From: Craspedostauros australis | Lineage: Eukaryota | NCBI GenBank assembly: GCA_030167865.1 | Contig: JALAGF010006716.1 | Span: 1-50,376, forward strand | Direction: 5' to 3' | Length of the DNA stretch: 50,376 bases | Shown: positions 25,038-47,199 of the stretch, piece by piece | How the letters are laid out: each line of letters opens with the position of its first letter | How positions within the stretch are numbered: the stretch's first letter is position 1 | Translations under genes and position numbers: made by a program | The notes under the pieces: model-generated | Databases searched by the model: none | The model's input: only the letters and a program-made list of their open reading frames with translations | Told to the model about the DNA's origin: nothing

Positions 25038-26774
25038 ATGCCGGTTGTTTCGAAGAAACAGCTCCTTGATGCTGCCAAGGAGGGTGATCTTTCGGTTTTG
25101 AAAGCATGGAAGAAGCAAAAACAAAGAGGTGATGTCAACGAGGTCAAGGATTGGTTAGGCTCAACTCTCCTTCATTGGGCATGCATGCACGGCAAGCTGG
25201 AGTGTGTCCAGTACCTCATCACATCATGCAAAGCTGATGTTAGCTGCATCAACGACGGATATTACACTCCCCTTCATTGGGCAGGTATTGGTGGTCATTT
25301 GGAGTGTGCCAAGTATCTCATCAACTCATGTGGGGCGAACATCAACTGCCAAAACGACTATGGTTCCACTCCCCTTCATCTGGCATGCCACAACGGCAAG
25401 CTGGAGTGTGTGAAGTACCTCATCGAACCATGCGGGGCGAACATCAATGGCAAAGACAACGATGGTTCCACTCCCCTTCATGTGGCATGCTACAGTGGCG
25501 AGCTGGAGTGTGCGAAGTACCTCATCGAATCATGTGAGGCCAATATCAACTGCAAAAACAACCGTGGTGCCACTCCCCTTCATTGGGCATGCATGCACGG
25601 CAATCTGGAGTGTATGAAGTACCTCATCGAATCATGTGGAGCGCATATCAACTGCGAAGACAAACATGGTGTCACTCCCCTTCACGTGGCATGCCTAAAT
25701 AGCAAGCTGGAGTATGTGAAGTACCTCATCAAATCAGCCAATGCTGACATCGACATCCAAAACAACGACAACCAAACACCCCTCCATTTGATCGATGCAG
25801 ACCATTACACTGAAATCAAGAGATTCATCATGAAGCATCGCAGTCACCGCAACCCACAACTATAACAACGCTTACAACAAAACGAGCAAGTGAATGAACA
25901 ACCAAAAGAACAGTCGGAGCAACAGTTGAAGCAAAAGAAGCAAGAGAATGACACAAACACAGTGGCCACAAGAGGATCAACATCAACATTGGAGAAGATC
26001 GGCCCAGATCCTTCCAAACCGAGAACAGGACAGACACCATCTTCCTGTGCGGAGGAGGCGACGAACAACAGCCGATCAAGGCAAGCAGCGGAGTCCTCAT
26101 GGTCACCGTCCCATCCATTCAAACGTTGATCGACTCCGGAATCCAACACCAGCACGTGAAGGATGGCACTGAAGACGGCGCGGCCCCATGCAAGTAACTG
26201 TCTCTCTTCCAAACTTTTAACCCAAACATGCCCGACATGTCCTCCAATGCATCTACACAGGCGAGATGAGATATCCTTTGATGACAGCGCTCGTGACAAC
26301 GGTGCTGCTCACGTCGGAGCTTACGCCGGCGCCCACCACGATGTAGATGCCTCTCACCAGCCAACTCCCACCCTCACTGGACAGGACGATCTGCGACAGC
26401 TGATCCTTGTGGCCAACGAGTTCGGCTTCTGGCGACTCAAGCTTGTTCTTGAAGCAGAGTTGGCCCACAAGCATCTCACAGAAGACACCATGATAGATGC
26501 ATTGATATTCGCCGATCAGCATATCTGCGCACTGCTGAAAGACGCAGCAATGAGAATGGCAGCTGAAAATGAGAAAAACATGTTCATTCATCCAGATTTC
26601 AGCAAACTAATTCTACAACCCCAACTGATGGGAGACATTCATGTCCTCCGCAGTGGGGGAGCGGAGAGTGATGGTATCGATGATGAGTACAGCCGTATGT
26701 CCATGATGGAGCTGTACAAGGTTGTCGATGAGGATGAGGGTACAGCACAAATGGATTCATACAAGTATCGATGA
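25038..26774 (+). pseudogene. ANK-CC-BTB copy 1: open 275-aa ORF with 6 ankyrin repeats (25038-25865), then disrupted coiled-coil/BTB part truncated by a deletion
   Basis: TAA at 25863. 1-bp deletion in GAGAATGA-CACAAAC (about 25951). Another CAA-to-TAA at 26218. BTB remnant DDLRQLILVANEFGFWRLKL. It joins spacer sequence at about 26765. It could be expressed as an ANK-only protein. Confidence 0.85.
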
Positions 26775-28010
26775 ACTCATCGCGATGACTGCCATCATCG
26801 CGGCGACAACGAACATCCGGCAGTTCGGATGATGCGAACGCAGCCTCACGTTCAGGCGAAACCAACTCAAATGCGCACTCCACCGGTACTGGTTTGCACC
26901 AACGCAAGGGCTCACCTCCCCGAACGCATGTCCGAGGAAGTTCGCGAAGACCAAATCAACGTGACTGTAGCCAATCGACACCATGTGGCGAAGATCGGCG
27001 AAGGAAGTCCTCCGATGAACGATCACCATCGGCACGACAACGAAACAGATCAGGAGGATATCGAATTGACAGCATCGAACGGCACAGCAATGAGCGAGGT
27101 GAAAATGGACGGCATTGCAAACAACAACATGGCAACAAACGTTCGTCATCACGCGGGGCCCTTCAATCAAATCGTTGTGGACGAAGCAGATCGTCGACTC
27201 GCGATGCTGTCTACCATGAGAAGCTGTCCGGCACAAAACCACTGCAACTCATACCAAAGAAAGCAGTCAGGAACAAGAGAGCGTCTCAGTGCCGCCATCC
27301 CTTGCCGAATGGTACCAAAACTCCCACCCCGTGATGCATCACGACACGATGGGATGGAATGAGATGGATGGGCCGCTCCGTATTTGTATCATACTCCTGA
27401 AGGTATGGTAGATCCACATCCCTGTAATGTAATACACCTACGAATAAACTGTAATGCTCTGTTATATATAGGATTGGAACAGTACCGCATGCACTATATC
27501 TGCTTGTGCAATAGAACGCTGTGATGAAGTCACCAGATGTTTCAAGATATTGAAGGGTTGGATACTGCTCCCATACTGCCTCCACCTTGTCTACGACTAC
27601 TCTGGTCCACTCTCTGCGGTACAAACGCACACAGGAATGTTGCCGATGTCATTCACGAGCAGATTGGACGTCCGTGGTTCCATCCACGCTCCGCCACGTT
27701 GTTGGTTCGTTGCTCAGACAAAGGACGCATGGCAGCAACATTTTCACAAGCCGTGCGGTCGTCACCGTGCGGTCGTCACCATGCCACCGGATCTACACAC
27801 AGAACACTCCAACTCACACTGCCAAACAGATTGAAAGTGACAGTGCCGATGCCAGTCGATCCAAGTTTGTGGAAGAGACGATCTACGAAGCCTACCTGGC
27901 GAACAAGGCAGAGGGAAATGGTGAGAAGCCGCGAGGAGCATGGTTGCAGCGCAGTTCCATCGACCGTCTCGTATCGCGCTATTGTCCTCATCTCACCAGG
28001 AGTTGCACTC

Positions 28011-29033
28011 TCACCATTCTGCCAGAACTGCAGTCGAGACCCTCACCAAGTCCCAGGAGGAGCGATCACTCGTTGTTGGAGCAACAAATGCCGGGGTCAC
28101 CATCCATTCCATTCTTCGAAGCGACCAGTGCCAGTGTGGCAGAAAGACAAGAACCGACGAGCTAGCACAGTCCAAACATCCAGAGAGCTTGACGAGCAAC
28201 AGAAGAAGCCAACGAACCAACCAACCAACGAGCAACCCCATGCAGAGCGCGAGTACTGTATTGCGGATCATGGTTGACACAGAGTTCCATACAGCACAAG
28301 AAGCACACGGCCAGCGATCCATGGCCCATTCGCACCGTACACCCACATGTCCTCCTTTGTGGTGCTCCCAACTTCGTTCGTGAGGCGGAGGTTCTTGTCG
28401 ATCGCCTCGGTTGAGCATCGATGCTCTGGGAGTCACGAGCCAAGACGGCGGCACTCATGCCTATTGATAGAATGCGCATGGTATTGTATGTTGGTGGTCC
28501 GTGTGGCAGGAACAGTGGAGGCGGCACGGTATCACTCCGCCTGTTGGTTGCTGGACGTGTCAACTCATCCCAATACGCAATGTGATGTTGGTTTGATGTT
28601 GGTTTGATGTTGAGGGCTCTTGTTGCCTGCGCGGATGGTGATGCTTGCAATGCGGTGGGATGGCAACCAGTCAAGTCCAAATGAGATGGGTCGCAACGAA
28701 CAAAGGCAGTCACATTGGTGGCTTTCTCAGTGGCTTCATGGTTGTTCGAGGCATCGGCTCACACCTCAAGTTGGTGCTTGCGATGGCAGGCGGACGAGCG
28801 TCAGCGGTCTTGCAGATGCCACGATGACGCAAGCAAGCGTGGGCCATGGTGCACATGGTGGTGGCGGCGGTGGCGGCGACGATGACAGCTNTCTNTGTTT
28901 CCGAAGACTTTNACGTTGTTTGCTTCGGATTGGTGTTGCNTTGATTGTGGCCAAACGAGAACTCTGTTGTGGTGCTTCTTTCTTGTTGTTGGTCGCACGC
29001 ATTTTCGTGATGGATGGGAACAGAAAGATCCAA
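28011..29033 (-). pseudogene. Possible passenger gene E relic, divergent from the ANK-BTB gene (also about 34770-35156 and 41950-42918)
   Basis: The same ATG and N-terminus MDLSVPIHHENACDQQQERSTTTEFSFGHNQ occur in three spacer copies. Interrupted downstream, with no recognisable domain. Confidence 0.3.
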
Positions 29034-29134
29034 TCCGCGCGAACCAGACGGGTGCGATCAAGGGAAGGAGACAAACACAGGCAAACAGAAGGAGGAGACC
29101 ATGCGAACAAGACAACAGCACACACATCACTCGA

Positions 29135-29194
29135 CCCCATACTCAACCCCATACTCAACCCCATACTCAACCCCATACTCAACCCCATACTCAA
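29135..29194 (+). repeat. 12-bp tandem repeat (CCCCATACTCAA)x5 upstream of copy 2
   Basis: Five perfect units. The homologous sites before copies 3 (about 35258) and 4 (about 43020) have a single unit. Confidence 0.9.
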
Positions 29195-29397
29195 CCGCGT
29201 GAACAACAGACATCGAATTGCCACTCATATTCATCACACAGCGTATGGTACTCATACTCATACTCATACAAACTGTTGCATACACAAACATCGATATCTC
29301 TTCCATAGGCAGCTCCGACCACAGACATCCTCGACAGCCAATCCAACGCTAATCGTCCAACGTCTATCGTCCAGCGACCATCCACCATACTCTCAAA

Positions 29398-31209
29398 ATG
29401 CCGAGTGTTACCAACCAACAACTCATTGATGCTGCCTCTGCAGGTGACTTGTCAGTGTTGAAGGAATGGAAGAAGCAGAACAAGACGCAGAATGAAGGAA
29501 ATGGTGTCAACTTCAAAGACCATGATGGTTGCACTCCCCTTCATTGGGCATGCTGCTACGGCCAGCTGGAGTGTGTCAAGTACCTCATCGAATCATGTGA
29601 GGCGGACATCAACTGCAAAAACAACAATGGTCGCACTCCCCTTCATTGGGCATGCTACAACGGCCACCTGGAGTGTGTCAAGTACCTCATCGAATCATGT
29701 GAGGCGAACATCAACTGCAAAACCAACTCTGGTTGGACTCCCCTTCATCACGCATGCCGCTACGGCCACCTGGAGTGTGTTGCGTACCTCGTTGCATCAG
29801 CCAATGCCGATGTCGACATCCAAGACAACCACAACAAAACACCCCTCGATGTGATCCGTACGACACTTCCAATCAAGATGATAACACGTCTCGATCATCT
29901 GAGTCACCGCAACTCACAACTGCAGGAGGAGAACGAACACCTGGAACAGCAGCTGAAACGGGAGAAGGAAGCAAAGAGGCAGAAGGAGCAGGAGAATGAA
30001 CAACTGAAACAGCAGTTGGAACGGGAGAAGGAAGCAAAGAGGCAAAAGGAGCAAGAGAATGAACAACTGAAACAGCAGTTGGAACGGAAGGAGGAAGAGA
30101 AGACCCAGAAGGAGCAAGAGAATGAACAACTGAAACAGCAGTTGGGACGAGAGGAGGAAGAGAAGAAGCAGAAGGAGGAAGAGAATGAGCAACTGAAACA
30201 ACAGTTGGAACAGAAGGAGGAAGAGAAGACCCAGAAGGAGCAGGAGAACGAACAATTGAAACAGCAGTTGGAACAGGAGAAGGAAGAAATGCATCGCTTG
30301 CTCTCGAAAAGTCAACAGGAGAACGAACAACTGAAACGGAAGTTGAAACAACATCTCAAGATCAGCATCGACCAAGATCGTTGTGCCGCTGTTCATGCTG
30401 AGGCCATCGCAGACATTACCTTCCTGTGCGGACAAGGGGACGAACAACAACCAATCAAGGCAAACTCCGGAGTCCTCATGATCACTGTCCCACCCATTCA
30501 GACACTGATCAACTCTGGAATCCAACATCAATGCGCTCACGATGGTGCCCATGATGGCGCTCAAGATACAACTGAACCCATCCAAACAACCATCCCTCTT
30601 CCCAACTTTCAACCAAAACACGTCCGATACGTCCTCCAATGTATCTACAGAGGTGAGATATCCTTCAACAACAACGCTCATGACTACGCTGGCAATGATG
30701 ACGCAAACCAGCCAACTCCCGCCCTCACTGGACAGGATGATCTGCAACAGCTGATCCTTGTGGCCAACGAGTTCGGCTACTGGCGACTCAAGCTTGTTCT
30801 TGAATCAGAGTTGGCCCGCAAGCATCTCACAGAAGACACCATGATAGATGTGTTGATATTCGCTGATCAGCACAACTGTGTGGTGTTGAAGGATGCAGCA
30901 ATGAGGATGGCAGCTGAAAATGAGAACAAATTGTTCAGTCATCCAGGTTCCAAGCAGCTATTTCATCACCCTCACCTAATGGGAGTCATTCATGACCTCT
31001 GCCATGGTAGAATGGAGAGTGACGGACTTGATGATGAGTACAGTGGCATGTCCGTGATGGAGCTGTACAAGGTCATAGATGAGGACAAGGGTACAGAACA
31101 AGTGGATTCATACATGGATTGTGCGACATTGGTGGACTTCGTCCGCTCTCTGAGTACCAAATCATCCATAGTGATTGAGACGGACAGTGCTGCTGCAGAA
31201 GAAGAGTGA
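29398..31209 (+). CDS. ANK-CC-BTB copy 2 (intact, 603 aa): N-cap + 3 ankyrin repeats + C-cap, 21-aa-repeat coiled coil, BTB/POZ-BACK (SPOP-like), short SAP-like tail
   Basis: GxTPLHWACxxGHLECVKYLIES repeats. (KQQLE...EQENEQL)n. ADITFLCG ... IKANSGVL ... LPNFQPKHVRYVLQCIYRGEI ... LILVANEFGYWRLKLVLE ... DVLIFADQHNCVVLKDAAM (BTB-BACK pattern). YSGMSVMELY ... ATLVDFV (SAP-like, by eye). Confidence 0.9.
   Translation: MPSVTNQQLIDAASAGDLSVLKEWKKQNKTQNEGNGVNFKDHDGCTPLHWACCYGQLECVKYLIESCEADINCKNNNGRTPLHWACYNGHLECVKYLIESCEANINCKTNSGWTPLHHACRYGHLECVAYLVASANADVDIQDNHNKTPLDVIRTTLPIKMITRLDHLSHRNSQLQEENEHLEQQLKREKEAKRQKEQENEQLKQQLEREKEAKRQKEQENEQLKQQLERKEEEKTQKEQENEQLKQQLGREEEEKKQKEEENEQLKQQLEQKEEEKTQKEQENEQLKQQLEQEKEEMHRLLSKSQQENEQLKRKLKQHLKISIDQDRCAAVHAEAIADITFLCGQGDEQQPIKANSGVLMITVPPIQTLINSGIQHQCAHDGAHDGAQDTTEPIQTTIPLPNFQPKHVRYVLQCIYRGEISFNNNAHDYAGNDDANQPTPALTGQDDLQQLILVANEFGYWRLKLVLESELARKHLTEDTMIDVLIFADQHNCVVLKDAAMRMAAENENKLFSHPGSKQLFHHPHLMGVIHDLCHGRMESDGLDDEYSGMSVMELYKVIDEDKGTEQVDSYMDCATLVDFVRSLSTKSSIVIETDSAAAEEE
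29929..30345 (+). repeat. 63-bp coding minisatellite (21 aa, 3 heptads) forming the coiled coil of copy 2
   Basis: GAGAA(T/C)GA(A/G)CA... recurs at 29929, 29992, 30055, 30118, 30181 and 30244, then with a 12-bp insertion at 30319. Confidence 0.9.
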
Positions 31210-31365
31210 AGTGTCAGACCATTTCATACCATGCCATACCGTACCAGAAATCTTCCACAAGTGAACGCATGACGGAATTGAGTTGATTGATAAAAATAGT
31301 CGTCAGAATAGTCATTAGGATAGAATCTGTGTGAAAGGAGCTGGAGCAATTAGTGATCCAATCAT

Positions 31366-32436
31366 TCAATGGTGAGTCCGCCATGACTTGACCGTCGCCT
31401 TTGGTGATGTGCACAGCATGCTCCTCCATGCACTCCCGTATCGTTTGGAGCGCGGTCTGGCTGGGCCGCGAGATACGCATGATCTTCTGTGCATGAATTG
31501 CAGATGATCCCGGTTGGCGTATGGCACGTTGGTGTGCAACATCAGTGGCCAATGCGACATGAAGACGATGGTTCAGCCACCGCTGTCATTGCTGTGGTCG
31601 TCATTGCCGATCATATGGTTTCCGCGTTCGTTGGTGTCGATGATGTGAGCGGAGTTTTTGTGGGAAACGATGGTGGACCCTGCGGGTGTCATGCATGGCT
31701 TGTTGGACTGGAATCCAACTTGACGAGGTGGAGCGTATTGCGACAGTACCTTGTTGTTGTTGGTGGTGGTGGTGCTGCAGTTCGAGCATGATGTCGCGCA
31801 GGGCACAAGCGCATGCCAACAGCTGCTGCATGGTTTTCGATAGGTATGGCCGACAAAGATGACGAGCAATGGGAGAAGTTGCCAACGTCATTGCACACGA
31901 TTTCAATAATGGTGGATCCAAGGAGACAGTGCCTCTGTCTCATCGTTTGCGGTTTGTGGTGGCGACGTATCGTTTCGAGCATCGGTATGAACAGGCGTGG
32001 CTGGTTGTGGTGCGTGTTGTGGGGACTGAGGAACATCTCCAAACTGATGGCTCTGTTGGTCTCGGGAAAAGTCGCTGCGTCCGATCTCACGGATGTACCT
32101 GTCCAACATGTGCTGAATCTCCGTTTCCGACAGCTCATCGGACGTTTCTGCGCGTGCACGCTGCTGCTGATGACTTGAATCCAGACCGCACCATGGGCCA
32201 TGACATGTCTTGCCATCGTAGTTGGCTCTGTTGTTGGTGCTGTGATTTCACATGTCCCAAGCTCTCCTCTACTCCGGAGCAGTTGGTGTGATATCTTCCT
32301 TTCTGATGTCGCTGAGCGATGCGACACGTTTGATATCGCTGTTCATCACCGCTTGCCATTCATCATCGGCATGATCATTGGCATCATCATTGTCTCTTGC
32401 AATGGTCGCCTTCGTTGATTCTGGTTAGCGTGCCAT
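31366..32436 (-). pseudogene. Passenger gene B relic (unknown protein), tail-to-tail with copy 2
   Basis: One reading frame from ATG 32436: MAR*PESTKATIARDNDDANDHADDEWQAVMNSDIKRV ... ELSETEIQHMLDRYIREIGRSDF ... PWIHHY*NRVQ*RWQLLPLLVIFVG..., with scattered TAA/TAG/TGA stops. Confidence 0.5.
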
Positions 32437-32742
32437 ATTTTGCGCAGCCGCCGCTTGCTTCATTGCTTCATTGCTTCATTGCTTTGCTGCTTGACAGACA
32501 ATGTCTCATTGTTGGCTGATACCTCTATTAATGCAAACATAGTCATGCCATTTCATCTCTCTCTTTTGTGTTGATGTTGTTTTGATGTTGTTTGATGGAT
32601 CATGGGTGCAAAATCGAAGATTCGTTGGTTTGGGTGACATCAAGAATTTTTGGCGCGTTTGGCGAGTACTCGTCTGTCTGCCATCCGTCGTTCATTCAAC
32701 CAATGACACACGCGCACACTCGCGACGAACATCACCAATGCG

Positions 32743-34768
32743 TTGTCTTCGTGCAACGCAACTCTGTTCGACGATGACGATGGCAATGGCAACCACTCCA
32801 ATGACGCCGCATCCCTCCACATTGGTACCACCAACAACACAAGCACAAACAATCAGACAATCAGACAAGATGACAAAGCATCGACATCCAAGAGGAACTG
32901 TGGGAAGCCTCGCCAGTTGCTCCGCACCTTGACCCACCCGTCCTACGACTATGAGTATGGAACCTTTCATGAGTACGATCTACTCTCTGGGAGTTGCCAC
33001 AGCCAAGCGTCCAGCCTGATACTCTGTTCAAACCTTTGTGCGGTCATGAGGTCGTGACGATCAAAGTTGCTGGAAGAGGACGGTGTCAGACTGATAGCGG
33101 AGAAACAAACGGAGACCAAGCAACCACAACAGACTGACACGAAATTGAAGGCGAGCAAGCCCACAAGCGTCGCCAAAGAGGCCAAAGCAGCTGCAAAATC
33201 AGGTCGTCGTGCGAGTGTCAGCACAGATACACCAAGCAGCGCCAATAGAAGTACAGCAAAAGATGCAAAAGCTTCAGCTGTGAAACCATCATGTGCGAAG
33301 AGTCTGGACATGCTCGACATGCAAGATCACGAGATGTCATTCAGCTCCCTTGATCAAAGCAAGTTCATCAACAACGAATCCATACCGTCGCCAAACACCC
33401 CAGGTGGACTCAGCTTCGCCACAGCCCCGGCACTTGGCGCAACCAGCGAACGGAGCAGCCAAGACAAGACGAAGCTTGCCCAGAGTCGGAGACGCAGGCC
33501 AAGGCCAAGAACGAATTCCAACGGAACGACCAGCAGCGCCAAATCGAGGAGCAAGAGTTTGGAATGCTCGAAGGACGGACACAACATGCCAGGCACACCA
33601 GACACATCAGATACAACAGGCGCGATGAGCGCAGCCAGCACCCCGGCTCTACCTCGAGTTGCGACAACGGAGACGTCACGCAGCAAGAGCCTGGAGTCAC
33701 TGATCAATCTGCCAAGTCTCTACGACGACGACGACAGCATTGGCGTTGCTACAAGTGCTGCTGCAACGAACGGTGGGAGAAGCCCTGTGGCCCCTGTCAC
33801 GCCTGGAGGTCGGAGTGCGGCATCTACACCAGCCCCGTTCAGCCACATACATGAATAGAGACAACAGTCTTTGTCGTTGAACAAGCGCAGGTCGACGTTG
33901 GCAAGCATCCTCAAGACCAAACGATCATCATTACGTGAAGTGTCGTCAACCAATCCTGCCAAATCGAAGCAACGACCATCTCTCGAATGTCGACCATCGC
34001 NNNNNNNNNNNNNNNNNNNNNNNNNNNNNNNNNNNNNNNNNNNNNNNNNNGATCTTGCCTTGACTGAAGCATCCGCAAAGGCGTCATCATCGCCATCATC
34101 ATCGCCGTCGCCACCGTCATCATCATCATCATCACGGTCCAAATCCAATCTCAATCTTCAACAGTTCCAACACAAGCATGGAGGTGTCTCGGCCAAAACC
34201 CCAAGCCTCATCCAGTCCTGGAGCCTTGAGTTTGGGAATCGAATTGCAATCGAGCAAGAAGGACCGGGTGGCTCCTTCTCGCAACAGATCTGCATGTAGT
34301 TCGTTGCGCCCAAGTGAAGACTCAAAGCAACGACGTTCACGCGGACGAAGCACGGGTGCTCTGGGCGATGAGAAGCGATCAAGGAAAGGAAAGGATCTCC
34401 AAGGTGCTTGGCAATGGGCCCCGACATCACCACTCCAGCAAAACATGAGGTGTGTCATCACCATTGATATTACCATCGATATCACCGTCGCCACGGCATC
34501 GGCAGAGAAGCGCACAGCACACCAGTGGCAAGCTGCACTCGACATCGTCAAAATTACAGAGTGTGGAGCGTTCGACATCATTGTGCCATCGTCGTGACGG
34601 AGCAATTCACACTTGCTCCTCTGGAAGAAGCCGCTGCTCGTCATCGGCGCAGAGTCGTCGAAGCCTGTCCGATCGCGATCACAGAAGACTGCGCAACTAT
34701 CGATGGACTCATCGCCATCATCACGGCGACAACGAACATCTGGCAGTTCGGACGATGTGAACGCAGCC
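32743..34768 (+). pseudogene. Passenger gene C relic: long S/R/K-rich disordered protein, 3' part deleted
   Basis: Consecutive same-frame ORFs 32743-33057, 33067-33858 and 33871 onward, separated by single TGA/TAG codons (MRS*RSKLLEEDG; SHIHE*RQQSLSL). Confidence 0.55.
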
Positions 34769-35499
34769 AGTCACATTGGTGGCTTCATCGGTGGCTTCAT
34801 GGTTGTTCGAGGCATCGGCTCACACCTCAAGTTGGTGCTTGCGATGGCAGGCGGACGAGGGTCAGCGGTCTTGCAGATGCCACGATGACGCAAGCAAGCG
34901 TGGGCCATGGTGCACATGGTGGTGGCGGCGATGGTGGCGACGATGACAGCTGTCTGTGTTTCCGAAGACTTTCATGTTGTTTGCTTCGGATTGGTGTTGC
35001 GTTGATTGTGGCCAAACGAGAACTCTGTTGTGGTGCTTCTTTCTTGTTGTTGGTCGCACGCATTTTCGTGATGGATNNNNNNNNNNNNNNNNNNNNNNNN
35101 NNNNNTTGTTGTTGGTCGCACGCATTTTCGTGATGGATGGGAACAGAAAGATCCAATCCGCGCGAACCAGACGCGTTTGATCAAGAGAAGGAGACAAACA
35201 CAGGCAAACAGAAGGAGGAGACCATGCGAACAAGACAACAACACACACATCACTCAACCCCATACTCAACCGCGTGAACAACAGACATCGAGTTGCCACT
35301 CATATTCATCACACAGCGTATGGTACTCATACTCATACTCATACTAATACAAGCTGTTGCATACACAAACATCGATATCTCTTCCATAGGCAGCTCCGAC
35401 CACAGACATCCTCGACAGCCAATCCAACGTAAATCGTCCAACATCAATCGTCCAACGCCAATCATCCAGCAACCATTGACCATCCACCACACTCTCAAA

Positions 35500-37205
35500 A
35501 TGCCGAATGTTACGAACAAACAACTCCTTGATGCTGCCTGGGAAGGTGACTTGTCGGTGTTGAAGAAGTGGAAGAAGCAGAGCAAGACGCAGAATGAAGG
35601 AGATGGTATCAACTGCAAAGATAACAATGGTGACACTCCCCTTCATGTGGCATGCTTCCGTGGCCACCTGGAGTGTGTTGCGTACCTCATTGAATCATGT
35701 GGGGCGAACATCAACTGCAAAAACAACTATGGTTCCACTCCCCTTCATCTGGCATGCTGCGACGGCCACCTGGAGTGTGTGAAGTACCTCATCGAATCAT
35801 GTGAGGCGAATATCAACTGCCAAGACAGCGATGGTTGGACCCCCCTTCATGCGGCATGCTCCTACGGCCACCTGGAGTGTATCGAGTACCTCATCGAATC
35901 ATGTGGGGCGAACATCAACTGCAAAGACAACGATGGTTCCACTCCCCTTCATGAAGCATGCTTCAACGGCCACGTGGACTGTGTCAAGTACCTCATCGAA
36001 TCATGTGAGGCGAACATCAACCGCAAAGACAACAATGGAACCACTCCCCTTCATGACGCATGCAACAACAACCAGCTGGAGTGTATCGAGTACCTCATCG
36101 GATCATGTGGGGCTGACGTCAATTGCAAAGACGGTGAAGGCTCCACTCCCCTTCATTGGGCATGCAACAACAACCAGCTGGACTTGGACTGTATCGAGTC
36201 CCTCATTAGAGGACTTTCGCCTTCAGCTCACCCACAACTGCAACAACTACAACATCGCTTACAATAACACGAAGAAGAGAATGAACAACCACAAGAACAG
36301 TTGGGACAGCAGTTGAAGCGAAAGAAGCACGAGAATGAACACAAACACGGTATGCACAAGAGGACCAACATCAGCATTGGAGAGACCGGCTCAGATCATT
36401 CCAAACCGAGAACAGGGCAGACACCATCTTCGTATGTGAACAGGGCGACGAACAGCAACCAATCAAGGCAAACGCCGAAGTCCTCATGATCACTGTCCCA
36501 TCCATTCAGACACTGATCAACTCTGGAATCCAACACCAGCACGCGAATGATGGCACCGAAGACGGCGCGGTCCCCATCGAAACAACCATCCCTCTTCCCA
36601 ACTTTCAACCAAAACACGTCCGATACGTCCTCCAATGTATCTACAGAGGTGAGATATCCTTCAACAACAACACTCATGACTACGCTGGCGATGATGACGC
36701 AAACCAGCCAACTCCCACCCTCACTGGACAGGATGATCTGCAACAGCTGATTCTTGTGGCCAACGAGTTCGGCTTCTGGCGACTCAAGCTTGTTCTTGAA
36801 GCAGAGTTGGCCCGCAAGCATCTCACAGAAGACACCATGATAGATATGTTGATATTCGCTCATCAACACAACTGCTTGGTGTTGAAAGATGCAGCAATGA
36901 GAATGGTTGCTGAAAGTGAGAAAGACATGTTCACTCATCCAGATTTCGGCAAGCTGATTCTACAGCCCCAACTGATGAGAGACATTCATGCCCTCCGCAG
37001 TGGGGGAGCGGAGAGTGATGGAGTTGATGATGAGTACAGCTGCATGTCCATGGTGGAGCTGTACAAGGTTATGGATCAGGATGAGGGTACGGCACAAGTG
37101 GATTCGTACATGGATCGGGCAACATTGGTGGACTTCGTCCGCTCTCTGAGTACCAAATCATCCATAGTAGTTGAGACGGACGGTGCTGCTGCAGAAGAGG
37201 AGTGA
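35500..37205 (+). pseudogene. ANK-CC-BTB copy 3, split: 255-aa ORF with 6 ankyrin repeats (35500-36267) and an open 239-aa BTB-BACK ORF (about 36486-37205)
   Basis: CAA-to-TAA at 36265. 1-bp deletion at about 36384 (GGAGAGACCGG vs GGAGAAGATCGG in copy 1). Both halves are otherwise uninterrupted. Confidence 0.85.
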
Positions 37206-37300
37206 AGTGTCGGACCATGCCATACCGTACCAGAAATCTTCCACAAGTGAACGCATGACAGAATTGAGTCGACGGATAAAACTAGTCGTCAGAATAGCCA

Positions 37301-38445
37301 TTAGGACAGTAACTGTGTGAAAGAAGCTAAAGCAAGTAGGGATCCACTCATTCGATGGTGCGTCCGGCATGCCTTCACCGTCGCCTTTGGTGATCCATGC
37401 GGCATGCTGCTCCATGCACTCCCGTATCGTTCGCAGCACGGTCTGGCTGCACCGCGAGATATGCATGATCTTCTGTGCATGAATTGCAGATGATCCCGGT
37501 TGGTGTAAGGCACGTTGGTGTGCAGCATCATTTGCCAATGCGACATGAAGACGATGGTTCAGCCACCGCTGTCATCGCCGTGATCGTCGTTGCCGATCAT
37601 ATGGTTTCCACGTTCGTTGGTTTCGTGGGTGTGGAAGGAGTTGTGTGAGAAACGATGGTGGACCCTGTTGGCGTCATGCATGGCTTGTTGGACTCGAATC
37701 CAACTTGACGAGGTGGAGCGTATTGTGACAGTTAGCTTGTTGTTGGTGCTGCTGCTGCTGCTGCTGCAGTGTGTGCATGATGTCGCGCAAGGCACGCATG
37801 TATGCCAGCAGCTGCATGATTTTCGATAGGTATGGCCGACAAAGATGACGAGCAATGGGAGAAGTTGCCAACGTCATTGTACACGATTTCAATAATGGTG
37901 GATCCAAGGAGACAGTGCCTCTGTCTCATCGTTTGCGGTTTGTGGTGGCGACGTATCGCTTCGAGCATCGGTATGAACAGGCGTGGCTGGTTGTGGTGCG
38001 TGTAGTGGGGACTGAGGAACATCTCCAAACTGATGGCTCTGCAGGTCTCGGGAAAGTCGCTGAGTCCGATCTCACAGATGCACCCGTCCAGCATGTGCTG
38101 AATCTCCGTTGCCGACAGCGCATCGGACGTTTATGTGGGTGGGCGCGGCTGCTGATGACTTGAATCCAGACCGCACCATGGGCCATGACATGCCTTGCCA
38201 TTTCTGTTGGTTCTACTGTTGGCGCTGCGATTTCCCATGTCCCAAGATCTTCTCTACTCCGGAGCAATTGGTGTGACATCTTCCTTTCGGATGTCGCTGA
38301 GTGATGTGACAAGTTTGGGAACGCTGTTTGTCGCCGCTTGTCATTGATCATCATTGGCATCATTGGAATCATCATCGCCATCACCATCAGAATCTCCATC
38401 ATCTCTTGCCATGACCGCCTTCGTTGATTCTGGTTGGCGTGCCAT
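37301..38445 (-). pseudogene. Passenger gene B relic, second copy
   Basis: Colinear with 31366-32436. It starts MARQPES (CAA where the other copy has TAA) and shares the downstream stops. Confidence 0.5.
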
Positions 38446-38885
38446 ATTTTGCGCAGCCGCTTCCTGCTTGATTATTTCATTGCTTCATTTCTTCATCGCT
38501 TGACAGACAATGTCTCAGTGTTGGCTGATACCTCCATTAATGCAAACATAGTCATGCCATTTCATCTCTCGCTCTCTCTCGCTCTCTCTTGTTGTGTTGA
38601 AGTCGCTTGATGGATCATGGGTGCAAAATCGAAGATTCGTTGTTTTGGATGGTGTCAAGAATTGTTGGCACGTTTGTTGAGTACTCGTCTGTCTGCCATC
38701 CGTATTTCATTCAACCAATGACACGCATGTGCACTCACAACCAACATCATCTCGCTGTTGTCTTCATGCAACGCAACTCTGTTCGATGATTGTGAGGGTG
38801 ATGGCAACCACTCCAACGATGCCGCATCCCTTCACATTGGTACCACCAACGCAAACACCAACACAAACACCAACCATCGGACAAG

Positions 38886-41208
38886 ATGATGAGTCATCGA
38901 CATCCAAGAGGAACTGTGGGAAGGCTCGCCAGTTGCTCCGCATCTTTACCCACTCGTCGTACGATTATGAGTATCGAACCTTCCATGAGTACGATCTACT
39001 CTGGGAGTTGCCACAGCAAAGCGTCCAGCCTGATACTCTGTTCGAACCTTCGTGCGGTCATGACGATCGAAGTTGCTGGAAGAGGACGGTGTCAGACTGA
39101 TAGCGGAGAAACAAACGGAGACCAAGCAACCACAACAGACTGACACGAAATTGAAGGCGAGCAAGCCCACCAGCGTCGCCAATGAGGCCAAAGCAGCTGC
39201 AAAATCAGGTCGTCGTGCCAGTGTCAGCACAGATACACCAAGCAGTGCCAATAGAAGTACAGCAAAAGATGCAAAAGCTTCAGCTGTGAAACCATCACGT
39301 GCAAAGAGCCTGGACATGCTCGACATGCAAGCTCACGAGATGTCATCCAGCTCCTTTGATCAAAGCAAGTTCAATACCAACGAATCGATACCGGTGCCAA
39401 ACACCCCAGGTGGACTCAGCTTCGCCACAGCCCCGGCACTCGGCGCAACCCGCGAATGGAGCAGTCAAGACAAGACGAAGCTTGCCCAGAGTCGGAGACG
39501 CAGGCCAAGGACACAAACGAATTCCAACGGAACGACCAGCAGCGCCAAATCGAGGAGCAAGAGTTTGGAATTCTTGAAGGATGGACACCACATGCCAGGC
39601 GCAACATACACATCAGACATACCAGGCGCGAAGAGTACAGCCAGCACCCTGGCTGTATCTTGAGTTGCGACAACGGAGATGTCACGCAGTGAGAGCCTGG
39701 AGTCACTGACCAATCTGCCAAGTCTCCAAGACGACGACGATGGCAGCGTCGATGTGTGTGACAAGTGCTGCCGCAACGAACGGTGGGAGAAGCTTGGCGG
39801 CCCCTGTCACGCCTGAAGGTCGGAGCGCGGCATCTACACCAGCCCCCTTCAGCCACATACATGAATAGAGACAACAGTCTTTGTCGTTGAACAAGCGCAG
39901 GTCAACGTTGGAAAGTATCCTCAAGGCCAAACGATCATCATTACGTGAAGTGTCGTCGACCAATCCTCCCAAATCGAAGCAACAACCATCTCTCGAATCT
40001 CGATCATCGCAATTGGCTGATCTTGCCTTGACCAAAGCATCCGCAAAGGCACCATCATCGTCGCCATCATCATCACAGTCCAAATCCAAACTCAATCTTC
40101 AACAATTCCAACGCGAACATGAACACAGAGGTGTCTCGGCCGCACCCCAAGCCTCATCCAGTCCTGGAACCTTGAGTTTGGGAATCGAGTTGCAATCGAG
40201 CAAGAAGGAACAGGTGACTCCTTCTCACAACAGATCCGCACGCAGTTCGTTGCGCCCAAGTGAAGACTCAAAGCAACGACGTTCACGTGGACGAAGCACG
40301 GGTGCTCTGTGCGAGGCGATCAAGGAAACGTTCTCCAAGGTGCTTGGCAATGGGCCCCGACATCACCACTCCAGCAAAACATGAGGTGTGTCATCACCAT
40401 TGATATTACCATCGAAATCACTGTCGCCACGGCATCGGCGGAGAAGCGCACAGCACACCAGTGGCAAGCCGCACTCGGCATCGTCAAGATCAAAGAGTGT
40501 GGAGCATTCGACATCATTGCGCCATCATCGTGACGGAGCAATTCACACTTGCTCCTCTGGAAGAAGCCGCCGCTCGTCATCGGCGCGGAGTCGTCGAAGT
40601 CCGTCCGATCGCGGCCGCAGAAGACTGCGCAAGTATCGATGGACTCATAGCCATCATCACGGCGACAACGAGCATCTGGCAGTTCGGATGATGCGAACGC
40701 AGCCTCACGTTCAGGCGAAACCAACTCAAATGCGCACTCCACCGGTGCTGGTTTGCACCAACGCAAGGGCTCACCTTCCCGAACGCATGCCCGGGGAAGT
40801 TCGCGAAGACCAAATCAACGTGGCCATAGCCAATCGACACCATGTGGCGAAGATCAGCGAAGGAAGTCCTCTGATGAACGATCACCATCGGCGCGACAAC
40901 GAAGCAGATCAAGAGGATATCGAAATTGCAGTGTCGAACAGCACAGCGATGAGAGAGATGAGAATGGACGGCATTGCAAACAACAACATGGCCAACAACA
41001 GCATGGCAACAAACGTTCGTCATCACGCGGGGCCCTTCAATCAAATCGTTGTGGACGAAACAGATCATCGACTCGCGATGCTGTCTACCATGAGAAGCTG
41101 TCCGGCACAAAACCACTGCAACTCATATCAAAGAAAGCAGTCAGGAACAAGAGAGCGTCTCAGTGCCGCCATCCCTTGATGAATGGTACCAAAACTCCCA
41201 CCCCGTGA
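38886..41208 (+). pseudogene. Passenger gene C relic, full-length copy (its 3' remnant is also at 26765-27334)
   Basis: Colinear with 32870-34768. It continues into HQRKGSPSRTHARGSSRR ... ARQRSRSRG ... NGTKTPTP*, with stops and indels. Confidence 0.55.
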
Positions 41209-43253
41209 TGCATCACGACACGATGGGATGGAATGAGATGTGTCGGCCGCTCCGTACTCGTATCATACTCATAGAGGTATGGTAGATCCACATCCCTGTA
41301 TGTAATATACCTACGAATGGATTGTAATGTTCTATGATATGTAGGATTGGAACAGTACCGCATGCACCATATCTGCTTGTGCAATAGAACACTGTGATGA
41401 AGTGACCAGATGTTTCAAGAGATTGAAGGGTTGGATACTGCTCCCATACTGCCTCCACCTTGTCTACGACTACTCTGGTCCACTCTCTGCGGTACAAACG
41501 CACACAGGAATGTTGCCGATGTCATTCACAAGCAGATTGGACGTCCGTGGTTCCATCCACACTCCGCCATCATCCTTGTTGGTTCATTGCACAGACAAAG
41601 GATGCATGGCAGCACCATTTTCACAAGCCGTGCGGTTGTCACAGGGCGGTCGTCACCGTGCCGCCGGATTCGCACACAGAGCACTCTACTCCAAGTCACA
41701 CTGCCAAGCAGATTGAAAGCTACAGTGCCAATGCCAGCCGATCCAAGTTGCTGGAAGAGGCGATCTACGGAGACTACATGGCGAACAAAGCAGAGGGAAA
41801 TGATGAGAAGCAGCGAGGAGCATGGTTGTTGCACGGTTCCATCGACCGTCCCGGATCACGCTATTGTCCTCATCTCACCATGAGTTGCACTCCGCCATTG
41901 CGCCCAAACTGCAGTCGAGACCCTCACCAAGTCTCAGGAGGAGCGATCACTCATTGTTGGAGTAACAAATGCAGGGGCCACCATCCATTCCAATCTTCGA
42001 AGCAATCAGTGCCAGCATGGCGGAAAGACAAGAACTGACGAGGTAGCGCAGTCCAAGTATCCAGAGAGCTTGACGAGCAACAGAAGAAACCAACGAACCA
42101 ACGAACCAACAAGCAACCCCATGCAGAGTGCGAGTATTGTATTGCGGATCATGGTTGACACAGAGTTCCATACAGCACAAGAAGCACACGGCCAGCGATC
42201 AATGGCCCATGCGCGCACCGTACACCCACATATCCTCCTTTGTGGTGCTCCCAACTTCGTTGATGAGGCGGAGGTTCTTGTCGATCGCCTCGGTTGAGCA
42301 CCGATGCTCTGGAAGTCACGAGCCAAGACGGCGGCACTCATGCCTATTGATAGAATGCGCATGGTATTGTATGTTGGTGGTCCGTGTGGCAGGAACAGTG
42401 GAGGCGGCACGGTATCACTCCGCCTGTTGGTTGCTGGACGTGTCAACTCATCCCAATACGCAATGTGGTGTTGGTTTGATGTTGAGGACTCTTGTTGCCT
42501 GCGCGGATGGTGATGGTTGCAATGTGGTGGGATGGCAACCAGCCAAATCCAAATGAGATGGGTCGCAACCAACACAGGCAATCGACAAAGGCAGTCACAT
42601 TGGTGGCTTCATTGGTGACTAGATCGTTGTTCGAGGCATTGGCTCACACCTCAAGTTGGTGCTTGCGATGGCAGGCGGACGGGGGTCAGCGGTCTTGCAG
42701 ATGCCACGATGACGCAAGCAAGCGTGGGCCATGGCGCACATGGTGGTGGCGGCGGTGGCGGCGACGATGACAGCTGTCTGTGTTTCCGAAGGCTTCCACG
42801 TTGTTGGCCTCGGATTGGTGTTGCGTTGATTGTGGCCAAACGAGAACTCTGTTGTGGTGCTTCTTTCTTGTTGTTGGTCGCACGCATTTTCGTGATGGAT
42901 NNGAACAGAAAGATCCAATCCGCGCGAACCAGACGCGTTTGATCAAGAGAAGGAGACAAACACAGGCAAACAGAAGGAGGAGACCATGCGAACAAGACAG
43001 CAACACACACATCACTCAACCCCATACTCAACCGCGTGAACAACAGACATCGAATTGCCACTACTATTCATCACACAGCGTATGGTACTCATACTCATAC
43101 TAATACTCATACTAATACAAGCTGTTGCATACACAAACATCGATATCTCTTCCATAGGCAGCTCCGACCACAGACATCCTCGACAGCCAATCCAACGTAA
43201 ATCGTCCAACGTCCAACGTCTATCGTCCAGCAACCATCGACCACACTCTCAAA

Positions 43254-44789
43254 ATGCCGAGTGTTACCAACCGACAACTCATTGATGCTGCCGAGGCAGG
43301 TGACTTGTCAGCACTGAAGGAATGGAAGAAGCAGAACAAGACGCAGAATGAAGGAGATGGTGTCAACTTCAAAATCTACGATGGTTGGACTCCCCTTCAT
43401 CTGGCATGCTCCAACGGCCACCTGGAGTGTGTCAAGTACCTCATCGAATCATGTGAGGCGAACATCAACTGCAAAAGCAACTATGATTACACTCCCCTTC
43501 ATCATGCATGCTACAACGGCCACCTGGAGTGTGTCAAGTACCTCATCGAATCAGGTGAAGCGAACATCAACTGCGAAGACAACAATGGTGACACCCCCCT
43601 TCATTGGGCATGCTGGAACGGCCACCTGGAATGTGTGAAGTACCTCATCGAATCAGGTGGGGCGAACATCAACTGTCAAAACAACAAAGGTGAAACTCCC
43701 CTTCGTTGGACATGCACGCGCGGCCACCTGGAGTGTATGGAGTCCCTCATTAGAGGACTTTCACCTTCAGTTCACTCACAACTGCAACAACTGCAGCAAC
43801 ACTTACAACAAAACGAACAAGCAAATGAACAACCACAAGAACAGTTGAGACAACAGTTGAAGCGAAAGAGGCAAGAGAATGAACACAAACACAGCAGCCA
43901 CAAGAGGATCTAATCAGCATTGGAGAAGACCGACTCAAGTCCTTCTAAACTGGGAACAGGACAGATTCCGTCTTCTTGTGTGGACAGGGCGACCAACAGC
44001 AACCATTCAAGGCAAACTCTGAAGTCCTCATGATCACCATCCCATCCATTCAGACACTGATTGACAAAGGAATCCAACATCAGCGTGAATGATTGGACCG
44101 AAGACGGCACGGTCCCATGCAAGTAACCATCCCTCTTCCCAACCTTCAACCAAACACACGTTCGATACGTCCTCCAATGCATCTACACAGGCGAGATATC
44201 CTTCAATGACAGCGCTCGTGACAACGCTGCTGCTCATGTTGGCGCTCATGCCGGTGCTCACGCCGGCGCTCACCACGATGCAGATGCCCTTCACCTGCCA
44301 ACTCACATGCTCACGGGACAGGACGATCTGCAACAGCTGATCCTTGTGGCCAACGAGATCGGCTTCTGGCGACTCAAGATTGTTCTTGAAGCAGAGTTGG
44401 CCCTCAAGCATCTCACAGAGGCCCCCACGATAGATGCGTTGATATTCGCCCATCAACACAACTGCGTGGTGTTGAAGGATGCGGCAATGAGAATGGCAGC
44501 TGAAAGGGAGAAAGATATGTTCACTCATCCAGATTCCAGCAAACTGATTCTACAGCCCCAACTGATGGGAGGCATCCATGTCCTTTGCAGTGGGGGAGCG
44601 GAGAGTGATGGAGTTGATGATGGGTACGGTCGTATGTCCATGATGTAGTTGCACAAGGTTGTAGATGAAGACGAGGGTGCTGCGCAGGTGGATTCGTACA
44701 TGTATCGCGTTGCGCTGTTGCGCTTCGTGCGTTCCATCACATCTTCCAGGGTGGCTGAGAGCGACGGCGCTGCCGAGGAAGAGAAATAA
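43254..44789 (+). pseudogene. ANK-CC-BTB copy 4: open 219-aa ORF with 4 ankyrin repeats (43254-43913), then a frameshifted, stop-containing BTB part
   Basis: Stop/indel at 43911 (AGGATCTAATCAGC vs AGGACCAACATCAGC in copy 3). Further indels before the BTB remnant 44307-44648. GAG-to-TAG at 44646. The original end ...DGAAEEEK* is at 44789. Confidence 0.85.
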
Positions 44790-47199
44790 AGCAACAACAA
44801 CAGCAGCAGACTGAGGAGCAAGCATGTCATGGAATGAAGAAGATGAATTAGATGAGGAGTCAGAGTAGTACTAGTAACTATGATTCAAGCAGATGATCAG
44901 TGATCCATTCAATGCCGCGCCGCGCATGTCGAGCCATTCATTAGTTCAACCCTTTTGCTTGCATTCAGTGAAAAGGCGTAGGTTGATCTACACGTTGTGC
45001 TCGCTTTGCAATTGTTGTGCTTTGTGTTGTGTTGTGGATGGTATCATGCTGCATACCAGAATCGCCAGAGCTGATGTGTTGGTCCGGATTTGTGACGCCT
45101 CAACCTGATAGGAAGATCCGATTGATGCTGGTGTGATGGTGAACAAGCGAGGAGTACGGAACGTCAGCACAGCCAAGCTTTGAGCAGATCAATTGCCAAC
45201 GTCTCTGGCTGACGTACGTACAGTTGAGCAACTGATAAAGCATGCGTCCCTTCCACTCGAAATCAAGTCCAATAGTGTTGCCTGATGCCACTGCCGCACA
45301 GTTCACGCAAGCCAATTCTACCGCAACCGCCTGGGTAAGCAAAGAGTGCATGGGGAGGATGCGAAACGCAACACATGCCCTCCAAAGGTAGAGCAGGAGC
45401 ATTCATTCCAGCCCGCTACGTTCCGGGCAGCGCGTTGGAACTTGTGTCGCGAATCTGCTGATGTCTTGACGGCTACAAGCCTCCACAACGCACTGCTGTG
45501 CCCTTCACTTGAGGAAGTTCATTGGGAATGACTCGTCGAACATGCTGTATGGTACTCATGACATCGGTTGCCTGATGTTTTCATCTACATCGGATGTAGA
45601 TTGCGGGGAAGAAGTTGGTCATTTTCGTCAATCCTCTCCTTCATCGTCGCCTGGCATGCAATGATTGCCTCCATGGCAGAACTGATGTTGGATTCATCGG
45701 CAACGGCAATCATTGCTTTCGTAAATCCTGATCTGTGTGTGCGTGTTGTCAAACCCATGACACTTGATCAAGTGCCGAGTACGAATACTGGCGTTGGCAG
45801 TTGCGAGCTGGCCATGTGGAAGCATCCTCCATCCATGGATGCTCGACATGCAGGCACGCATGCAGAGCTTCTCCGCTTCGTGCAGCTGTGTTATTTTCTG
45901 CTCTTGAGCATGTCGAGCAATCGCTGTTGCCGAAGCTTCGCCGACGACCTGCGTATGTGGTGCGCGTTGCGCATGCGTGGTCTTCTTGGATACTGCGATG
46001 TCGGTTACTGATCGTATCCTGCGATGCTGCCCCGACCATCGATCCTCGTGGTGCAATAGCTGGTATTGATGATACCGCTGACCATGGTGGCATGATCTGC
46101 ATCCGTGGACGTTGACATCATGATCATCGTGATCATCGTAACTTCATTCGTGGTGATGGAGTCGTCATGAGATTGTTGAATGCGCTGCTGGCATGCTTGG
46201 AGTAGCAATGGTGTGTTCTGCGTTTCTCCATCTCTCTGTCTCGCGTCACCTTCTCTTGATCATGGCCGTCGCTTGCCGTCCCATCACGTCTCGTCATGTC
46301 CTGTCATGCTCGGTTCCGTTCATGCCTCATCTCTTCTCTCTTCACTACACGGATGGATCTCTGTCAACGCGATTGTCATGTGGTCATCATTGGCAACGCC
46401 GCGCTTCATCGGCGCTCATCAATAGCAGTGGCACTTCATTCCACCTTCATCTGCCTTCCTCGTCCCACATCACGCCACACCACACGACCATGTCCATTCC
46501 TCTTCATGCCATCCCCACCGCCGTAGCCTTTGTCTCGTCTCATGTCTGCCATTCTGGCGAACAAGAAGAGCAATCACAAATTTGGTGATGTTGCGCGCCA
46601 TTTTTGTTCTTGTTTGATCGTGTCCAAATGAGTCCCCCACGTCCACGATCGAAGTGCGTGATCCATTCAGATGAGTCGATAAAAGTATCCACAAAGATCC
46701 GTCACAACCATCAGACCGCGTCTCCAACTCCTCTCTCTTGTGCGTATTTCATCCGAGCAACATCATTGAACCACTGGATGAAGCATGTTCGAAGGCATCC
46801 ATCAAGCTGAAGTATTATGCGCTACCAATGCAGTAAGCGAGGCAGCATCCAGCTTCGAATCAACGGATGCAACGATGGAGTTGAATTGAGTTGAGTTGAA
46901 CATTCCTGTGTGATCATGGAATGGGCCAAAACGAAATGGTGTCAAATCAGGATCTCTGCCGTCCACATGAGTGCGGTGGACGCATCGACTATTCTCATTC
47001 GTACACTCATGGTATTCTCTTGTTTGGTAATCTATTGTAGGGTATTCTATTATATGATATGTTTGTGTATGGTGAAAATTGTGTGTCCGTGTGCAGACGG
47101 GCAGTGTAGGTACTGCAGATGGTATTCATGGTTGCCTTCTCGCTCGGCGATTGGCTGCAACCGCATCTGCGACTTCAAGTCTAAGCGCAGGAAAGCAAG

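Follow-up and report, generated by a model that had tools for sequence, protein, structure and literature searches.

A tandem cluster of ankyrin-BTB genes with diversifying selection at ankyrin slot codons in the pennate diatom Craspedostauros australis

The DNA studied here is a stretch of 50,376 nucleotides (the window) of contig JALAGF010006716.1 from the pennate diatom Craspedostauros australis (assembly GCA_030167865.1). Between positions 25038 and 44789 its + strand carries four tandem, head-to-tail paralogs (copies 1 to 4) of a gene family that joins a stack of ankyrin (ANK) repeats to a BTB-BACK domain. A preliminary description, prepared from the letters and a list of open reading frames (ORFs), had seen in this segment a natural counterpart of libraries made of designed ankyrin repeat proteins (DARPins), an array of genes hypervariable only at the codons of the binding surface. 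The internal ankyrin units are kept near-identical in DNA within and between copies, and codons 1, 6, 9 and 33 of the unit change much faster than synonymous and intergenic DNA.

Ankyrin units of the cluster

Four arrays of 102-bp repeats were reported by Tandem Repeats Finder, at 25164-25736, 29507-29780, 35608-36165 and 43363-43750. Anchoring on the TPLH motif resolves 19 in-frame units of 34 codons (34 aa, 102 bp), 6 in copy 1, 3 in copy 2, 6 in copy 3 and 4 in copy 4, the numbers given in the preliminary description; copies 1 and 2 each carry one extra degenerate C-cap unit (21 rows with both). The ankyrin parts of all four copies match the Pfam ankyrin profiles (PF00023, PF12796; Table 1). 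The 25038-44789 region is a segmental duplication with the order copy 1-X-Y-copy 2-Z-Y-copy 3-Z-X-Y-copy 4, in which Y is a block upstream and Z a block downstream of a copy and X is a further element (Table 1). Neither blastn nor tblastn found more copies or remnants in the flanks of the window, and an exact look-up of five window proteins in the protein collection found none of them.

The units share a common DNA frame. The 84-nt frame of the preliminary description was matched 6 times at no more than 3 mismatches, as compared with no match in 100 shuffles. Counted over its 75 specified bases, mismatches number 0-6 in 10 of the 19 units and 8-18 in another 7, rising to 26 in the truncated final unit of copy 4 and to 42 in that of copy 3, so the frame may be called nearly fixed in the first group and not in the others. 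Framework DNA identity between units reaches 98.7%. The cysteine codons are fixed by position (TGC at 8 and 29, TGT at 15 and 23), and such position-specific use of synonymous codons indicates that the common frame reflects identity by descent and not codon bias. At the protein level mean identity among units is 0.53-0.76 per copy (maximum 0.79), whereas homologues from other organisms have ordinary units with a mean identity of 0.22-0.50, which points to the homogenised state of the frame being lineage-specific.

The first and last units of the arrays are the most diverged and cluster by position (the sixth unit of copy 1 with the third unit of copy 2, the first unit of copy 1 alone), and the internal units of different copies intermix. 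Homogenisation of the interior of an array by unequal exchange would be expected to leave such a pattern, and the likeness of the units is probably due to unequal crossing-over or gene conversion.

The variable slots show 10 distinct residues before TPLH, 7 after LH, and 12 and then 7 in the two positions after AC, the same counts as reported earlier; in 17 units the counts are 9, 7, 11 and 7, the two truncated end units contributing E, T and N. The accompanying statement that hypervariability is limited to these slots is overstated, as positions 12, 16, 17, 21, 23, 24, 30 and 34 vary too, with 3-6 residues each.

Selection at the slot codons and their place in the fold

Slot codons were defined as unit positions 1, 6, 9, 10 and 33, site 10 being a weaker one. 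The Nei-Gojobori method applied to the 13 internal units gave a non-synonymous divergence (dN) of 0.91 at the slots, a synonymous divergence (dS) of 0.19 in the framework and a framework dN of 0.065; restricted to copies 2-4 (9 internal units), it gave 0.81, 0.13 and 0.052, respectively. The framework dN/dS was 0.34-0.48. Slot dN is thus 4.7-6.3 times the framework dS and about 10 times the intergenic divergence, for which the flanking non-coding blocks served as the neutral yardstick (90.0-95.0% identity between copies, i.e. 5.0-10.0% divergence). In 8 disjoint pairs of nearest-neighbour units 62 of 120 slot bases differ, in comparison to 78 of 696 bases at all non-slot positions and 32 of 232 at non-slot third positions (Fisher p 1.4e-13 for the latter versus the slots).

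Codon models were run in our own GY94-type implementation on fixed iqtree topologies. The fixed-site model gave an omega (dN/dS) of 9.3-13.5 for the post-hoc slots. For six DARPin positions, a set taken from DARPin design after the per-codon variability had already been seen, omega was 3.4-4.2. Omega = 1 was rejected (p <= 6e-7). Comparison of the site models M1a and M2a gave likelihood ratio test (LRT) values of 66.4 and 92.1, with approximately 12-13% of sites at omega 9-12 and an M2a posterior of at least 0.99 at sites 1, 6, 9 and 33; site 10 was not among them. Since exchange between units breaks the assumption of a single tree, the null was simulated with an independent genealogy for each codon, and none of the 71 replicates reached an LRT of 66.4 (maximum 39.1). 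Diversifying selection on the binding surface of the homogenised ankyrin array is real and statistically well supported, and the codon site models agree with the diversification at surface codons that the preliminary description had proposed.

CpG decay, named in the same description as a possible trivial cause, was rejected because only 152 of the 1138 pairwise slot differences are of the CpG-transition type; transversions make up 732 (64%), and all three codon positions are affected. A dedicated mutator, such as a diversity-generating retroelement, was also considered and set aside, with changes falling at all codon positions and 64% of them transversions. Five ORFs of elements X and Z had no Pfam match, no full search for a mutator being made.

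The AlphaFold model of copy 2, with a predicted local distance difference test score (pLDDT) of 77.6 overall and > 90 over the ankyrin part, has paired helices in each unit, the first (inner) helix spanning unit positions 3-9 and the second 13-21. Slots 6 and 9/10 are therefore one helical turn apart, offset from the conserved L4-A7-C8 stripe; slot 1 is located just ahead of the inner helix and slot 33 in the hairpin loop. In alignments (window numbering) the repeats of the DARPin 6mol_A differ mutually at positions 30, 32, 33, 1, 9 and 10, and those of ANK-N5C-317 (4o60_A) at 30, 32, 33, 1, 6 and 9, so that all four strongly selected sites are positions that engineers vary. The coincidence of the slots with DARPin-randomised positions, proposed earlier, is thus seen for sites 1, 9, 10 and 33 in the former and for 1, 6, 9 and 33 in the latter. 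Taken with the predicted secondary structure and textbook ankyrin geometry, these alignments place the slots on what is probably the concave ankyrin face. The DARPin and ANK-N5C libraries have, like the window units, a constant framework with diversity at hairpin and inner-helix positions. The window differs from them in being a natural array of 19 units in all and no library, in a unit one residue longer, and in positions 30 and 32, which are varied in the designed binders and only mildly variable here.

The BTB-BACK domain, relatives and condition of the copies

The C-terminal domain of copy 2 gives a marginal Pfam BTB (PF00651) match of 22.3 bits against a cut-off of 20.5. A phmmer search with residues 320-603 against 1.84 billion representatives returned 134 proteins at E <= 1e-3, 19 of them at E <= 1e-10. 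In total 28 matches were scanned with Pfam, and P0002 was judged by its precomputed domains. Eight of these proteins combine ANK and BTB (P0002, P0005, P0006, P0008, P0009, P0010, P0011 and P0017), and all eight are within the best 16 matches, interleaved with BTB-only proteins, fragments and a few MATH-BTB proteins. The weaker scanned matches are almost all MATH-BTB-BACK_BPM_SPOP proteins, often with a C-terminal SAP domain in addition.

The model of the domain alone (pLDDT 87.2, predicted template modelling score 0.83) finds its best fold match in the BTB-BACK part of SPOP (4j8z, E 1.8e-7, target template modelling score (TM) 0.81), followed by KEAP1, KBTBD2, vaccinia A55 and KLHL3, with NPR1 at rank 48 (E 5.9e-4). 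The fold search gave 53 solved chains at E <= 1e-3, and 27 of 27 among the matches listed are BTB proteins. A family profile matched SPOP with E 1.8e-39; because the profile contains MATH-BTB rows, only the BTB-BACK part of this match counts, and the BTB-BACK-only chain 4j8z was matched with E 6.6e-27. Profile and predicted fold thus support the assignment of the C-terminal domain to the SPOP/BPM type of BTB-BACK, as the preliminary description had it. Pfam detected no MATH domain in the copies, ankyrin repeats standing in its place and MATH appearing only in more distant relatives; nor did it detect NACHT or NB-ARC in any copy. With ANK-BTB proteins as the nearest homologues, MATH-BTB-BACK proteins next and SPOP as the fold match, the proposed replacement of MATH by ANK is supported as well. 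SPOP contacts Cullin-3 (Cul3) with the hydrophobic-x-Glu motif of its alpha3-beta4 loop and with the 3-box. In the alignment the hydrophobic residue is kept, the Ile of SGIQHQ standing opposite SPOP Met233, in a longer loop with no evident Glu two residues further on. By analogy with MATH-BTB adaptors the BTB-BACK domain of copy 2 may bind Cul3. Between copies 2 and 3 the dN/dS of BTB-BACK is 0.46.

The copies belong to a diatom ANK-linker-BTB family built from an N-cap (QL..AA..GDL), ANK units mostly of 34 residues, a C-cap, a QDRL linker and BTB-BACK. The closest named relatives, P0001 and P0142, are Craspedostauros australis entries by source label and have the same framework as the window units with other slot residues. 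P0142 is labelled at source as a transcriptome peptide (MMETSP), which indicates that the family is transcribed elsewhere. P0001 reads through a linker of the type found in copies 3 and 4, thereby showing its intact form.

Only copy 2 contains an uninterrupted ANK-BTB ORF (603 aa). All 13 lesions in the other copies fall within the 2867 nt that follow the ankyrin ORFs and none within the 2112 nt of ankyrin ORF, which under a uniform rate would have a probability of (0.576)^13, i.e. about 8e-4 (our arithmetic). The ankyrin parts therefore seem to be protected, either because ankyrin-only products are under selection or because intact genes convert them. The locus is not an array of working genes, and the earlier term gene array is overstated.

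In copy 2 a 63-bp repeat (87% matches) encodes part of a long predicted helix, which runs from residue 159 to residue 318 apart from a short break. The expansion is confined to this copy, the others having one short remnant, and the helix may be a spacer, of the single-alpha-helix or coiled-coil kind, that separates the ankyrin stack from BTB. Copies 1 and 2 share one type of C-cap and copies 3 and 4 the other, whereas by the type of BTB insertion copy 2 groups with copy 3 and copy 1 with copy 4. The presence of all four combinations of types shows the copies to be recombinant mosaics. Identity between copies is 78.5-87.6% in the BTB region, below the 90.0-95.0% of the flanking non-coding DNA.

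Table 1. Features of the ankyrin-BTB cluster (positions in the window).
Feature	Position	Strand	Remarks
Copy 1, ankyrin ORF, 275 aa	25038-25865	+	N-cap, 6 units of 34 aa (25161-25772), degenerate C-cap unit; Pfam Ank E 2.7e-62; TAA stop 25863-25865
Copy 1, broken linker and BTB-BACK remnant	25866-26774	+	1-nt deletions near 25950 and 26184; TAA 26218; 5-nt insertion 26258; 3' end cut off at about 26776, at the start of element X; copy 1 in all: 2 stops, 3 frameshifts, truncated 3' end
Element X, first copy	26791-28640	not assigned	Non-coding by Pfam; 93.2% identity to 40650-42525
Upstream block Y of copy 2	28650-29397	+	92.8-95.0% identity to the Y blocks of copies 3 and 4
Copy 2, sole intact gene, 603 aa	29398-31209	+	N-cap, 3 ankyrin units, C-cap, long helix, BTB-BACK; Pfam Ank E 1.1e-37
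Copy 2, three 102-bp ankyrin units	29530-29835	+	
Copy 2, 63-bp tandem repeat	29929-30287	+	5.7 copies; E/K/Q-rich 21-aa units
Copy 2, SPOP-type BTB-BACK domain	30412-31209	+	
Downstream block Z, first copy	31210-34650	not assigned	90.0% identity to 37206-40600; N run 34001-34050
Upstream block Y of copy 3	34711-35499	+	N run 35077-35105
Copy 3, ankyrin ORF	35500-36267	+	N-cap followed by 6 units (35632-36243), of which the sixth is cut short into the ESLIRGLSPS linker; Pfam Ank E 1.8e-68; closed by TAA 36265-36267, at which copy 4 and P0001 stay open
Copy 3, linker and BTB-BACK	36268-37205	+	1-nt deletion 36382 (frameshift); ORF 36486-37205 clean; copy 3 in all: 1 stop, 1 frameshift
Downstream block Z, second copy	37206-40600		
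Element X, second copy	40650-42525		
Upstream block Y of copy 4	42535-43253	+	
Copy 4, ankyrin ORF, 219 aa	43254-43913	+	N-cap, 4 units (43386-43793, the last truncated), part of linker; Pfam Ank E 1.8e-45
Copy 4, broken BTB-BACK remnant	43914-44789	+	1-nt deletion 43912; TAA 43946; 2-nt deletion 44083; 1-nt deletion near 44113; 1-nt insertion 44155 (missing from the run X1 contig); TAG 44646; copy 4 in all: 2 stops, 4 frameshifts

Isolated N and N runs are present within the array at 28891, 28895, 28912, 28940, 34001-34050, 35077-35105 and 42901-42902, in non-coding blocks only; the cluster is evidently difficult to assemble. Of the 1232 contigs of run X1 aligned to the 28941-44900 part of the window, 541 match at 99% identity or more; X1 contigs also show joints between copies. 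Over the same part the X1 word depth is high on the genes and element X and 0-34 in the other intergenic bins; this depth comes from contigs and shows neither expression nor strand. Element X is a block of about 1.85 kb whose ORFs have no Pfam match. Its X1 word depth of 130-750, far above that of other intergenic DNA, suggests an element that is perhaps present in many copies or transcribed. Approximately 200 bp upstream of the copy 2 start, at 29129-29196, there are 5.7 copies of a 12-bp tandem repeat ACTCAACCCCAT (98% matches) in a block that copy 2 otherwise shares with copies 3 and 4.

Elsewhere in the window a photolyase/cryptochrome gene (3-2351, - strand; PF00875 and PF03441 in relatives) has a long low-complexity N-terminal extension and its best named relatives in raphid pennate diatoms (63-66% identity), no named match being near-identical. 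At 6500-7777 (-) a Ser/Pro/Thr-rich protein with a PT repeat and a weak CBM96 match may be a secreted or cell-surface glycoprotein. Two adjoining ORFs at 11088-12979 (-) show weak ankyrin similarity (Ank_5 20.6 bits, below cut-off) and, judged by tblastn, have no relation to the ANK-BTB cluster. Two GNAT acetyltransferase genes, at 14301-15341 (+) and 16041-17447 (-), are on opposite strands and point apart.

Interpretation and rival explanations

The best explanation of these observations, to which we assign a probability of about 0.6, is a lineage-specific, diversifying tandem cluster of ANK-BTB genes in which the ankyrin groove would bind variable protein targets and the BTB-BACK domain would serve as a Cullin-3 adaptor, delivering the bound targets to the ligase in the manner of MATH-BTB adaptors. 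Candidate targets are viral, bacterial, mating or self-recognition proteins. Birth-and-death flux marks the cluster, in which one gene is intact and three copies are damaged.

Two known themes are combined in the cluster, the repeats of fungal NOD-like receptors (NLRs) and the expanded MATH-BTB adaptors. The MATH-BTB families of nematodes and grasses have a fast-evolving substrate-binding domain, a conserved BTB domain and frequent pseudogenes, and Thomas reportedly described in 2006 the adaptive evolution of MATH-BTB proteins against pathogens. The window genes resemble the SPOP/BPM adaptors in the homologous type of BTB-BACK and in local tandem duplication, and differ from them in that the substrate module is an ankyrin stack and diversity resides in repeated cassettes that can be shuffled instead of a single domain. 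For grasses, expanded and tandemly duplicated MATH-BTB families are described in PMC4091423.

According to a 2014 paper (PMC4986451), fungal NLRs have homogenised ANK, TPR and WD repeats with polymorphic repeat numbers, for which concerted evolution was suggested, and a few positively selected positions per unit on the concave surface, five of them in a Podospora ANK locus. As in those receptors, the window units are kept alike, their number varies among copies (3-6), and positive selection acts at a few positions per unit that probably map to the concave ankyrin surface. The same paper defines repeats of high internal conservation as stretches of 100 aa or more in which the repeats share no less than 85% identity, and at a maximum of 79% protein identity the window units stay below this value. 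The partner domain is BTB-BACK in place of NACHT or NB-ARC, the host is a diatom, and the unit has 34 residues versus 33. Of the earlier comparison with fungal NLR sensor domains the variable surface positions hold, and the high identity between repeats is not supported.

Ankyrin repeats and BTB are likewise found in one protein in animal ABTB1/BPOZ, ABTB2, BTBD11 and IBTK and in plant NPR1 and BOP. These animal ANK-BTB and plant BTB-ANK genes are conserved, single- or few-copy and not reported to diversify; in NPR1 the order of domains is reversed, and this protein ranks behind SPOP in the fold search. IBTK is described as a Cul3 substrate receptor in PMC5133848.

Several findings weigh against the diversifying-adaptor explanation. 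Downstream of the ankyrin part only one copy in four is unbroken, so that most of the supposed library may not yield an ANK-BTB protein. In the BTB-BACK domain the Pfam BACK_BPM_SPOP match of 20.1 bits is below the cut-off of 27.4, and the loop matching the SPOP Cul3-contact loop is longer by at least about 9 residues, with the Glu not evidently kept. The dS of BTB (copy 2, 30412-31209, versus copy 3, 36420-37205) is 0.235 and exceeds the flank divergence of 7-10%, so a simple history of duplication is insufficient; exchange with paralogs outside the window is a likely source of the excess, with recent homogenisation of the flanks a possible alternative. Recombination inflates the LRT, as 27 of the 71 null replicates exceeded 5.99, and nominal p-values are accordingly untrustworthy; the codon models are, moreover, our own implementation on a fixed topology, and the slot set was picked partly after inspection of the data. 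The insertion at 44155 is missing from the X1 contigs; part of the lesions may thus reflect errors of assembly or allelic differences, or else X1 may represent a different allele or paralog. Queries with copy 2 and with a five-sequence C-terminal alignment found no related loci in metagenome contigs.

The same family could owe its diversity to sexual reproduction or self-recognition between mating partners and not to pathogens, in which case ankyrin surfaces and partner proteins of the same species would co-evolve. BTB/POZ families of the benthic pennate diatom Seminavis robusta are among those strongly expressed in sexual stages and are named among genes of high piN/piS (PMC7335047); however, this evidence concerns BTB/POZ families generally and not ANK-BTB specifically, nothing in the window indicates mating, and we regard this origin of the selection as unlikely. 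An equally improbable alternative is that BTB-BACK acts only as an oligomerisation or scaffold module, producing multivalent ankyrin scaffolds with neither Cullin-3 recruitment nor ubiquitination. The marginal Pfam BTB score, the subthreshold BACK and the long insertion in the loop equivalent to the Cul3-contact loop of SPOP would fit such a role, as would the description of animal ANK-BTB proteins such as BTBD11 as synaptic scaffolds. On the other hand, the best matches are SPOP and then KEAP1, KBTBD2/4, KLHL3 and KLHL11, all Cul3 adaptors, and the closest relatives that lack ANK are MATH-BTB-BACK proteins.

Neutral evolution, in which young and largely pseudogenised copies would have slots that tolerate any residue (omega = 1), agrees with the three broken copies, with a framework dN/dS that is not very low (0.34-0.48) and with the inflation of site-model tests by recombination. 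It is already disfavoured, and in our view highly improbable, because of the excess of slot dN over framework dS (4.7-6.3 times) and over intergenic divergence (about 10 times), the rejection of omega = 1 at the slots and the position of 13 of 13 lesions outside the ankyrin ORFs (about 8e-4). Mis-joining or collapse of near-identical repeats during assembly might in turn have created chimeric units and false lesions, and the N within the array, the one indel that disagrees with the X1 contigs and the joining of copies by X1 contigs are signs of such difficulty. An artefact on this scale is hardly credible, since all 19 units keep the reading frame and their N-cap and C-cap stand in order, independent Craspedostauros transcriptome peptides share the framework with other slot residues, and 541 of the 1232 aligned X1 contigs match at 99% or more.

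A different use of the damaged copies can be imagined within the diversifying family: they might be donor cassettes, their ankyrin arrays, open in spite of the decay of all that follows them, being moved by gene conversion or unequal exchange into the intact copy 2. The logic would be comparable to that of the pseudogene V donors of bird immunoglobulin loci and of silent variant surface glycoprotein (VSG) copies. This proposal is very doubtful; if true, the cluster would be a diversity generator for a ubiquitin-ligase receptor.

A full-text literature search that lacked most subscription journals found no description of ANK-BTB families in diatoms, diversifying ones included. This agrees with the earlier remark that no such system was known, but the idea has precedents in the ANK repeats of fungal NLRs (PMC4986451) and in the rapidly evolving adaptors of MATH-BTB families. 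A diversifying ANK-BTB cluster in a diatom would show that a known recipe, homogenised repeats with hypervariable surface codons, was assembled independently on a ubiquitin-ligase adaptor. To our knowledge, the means by which diatoms recognise viruses, bacteria or each other are poorly established. The intact gene and its relatives are defined reagents for the pull-down of targets, and the cluster would be a concrete candidate for a recognition system in major marine primary producers.

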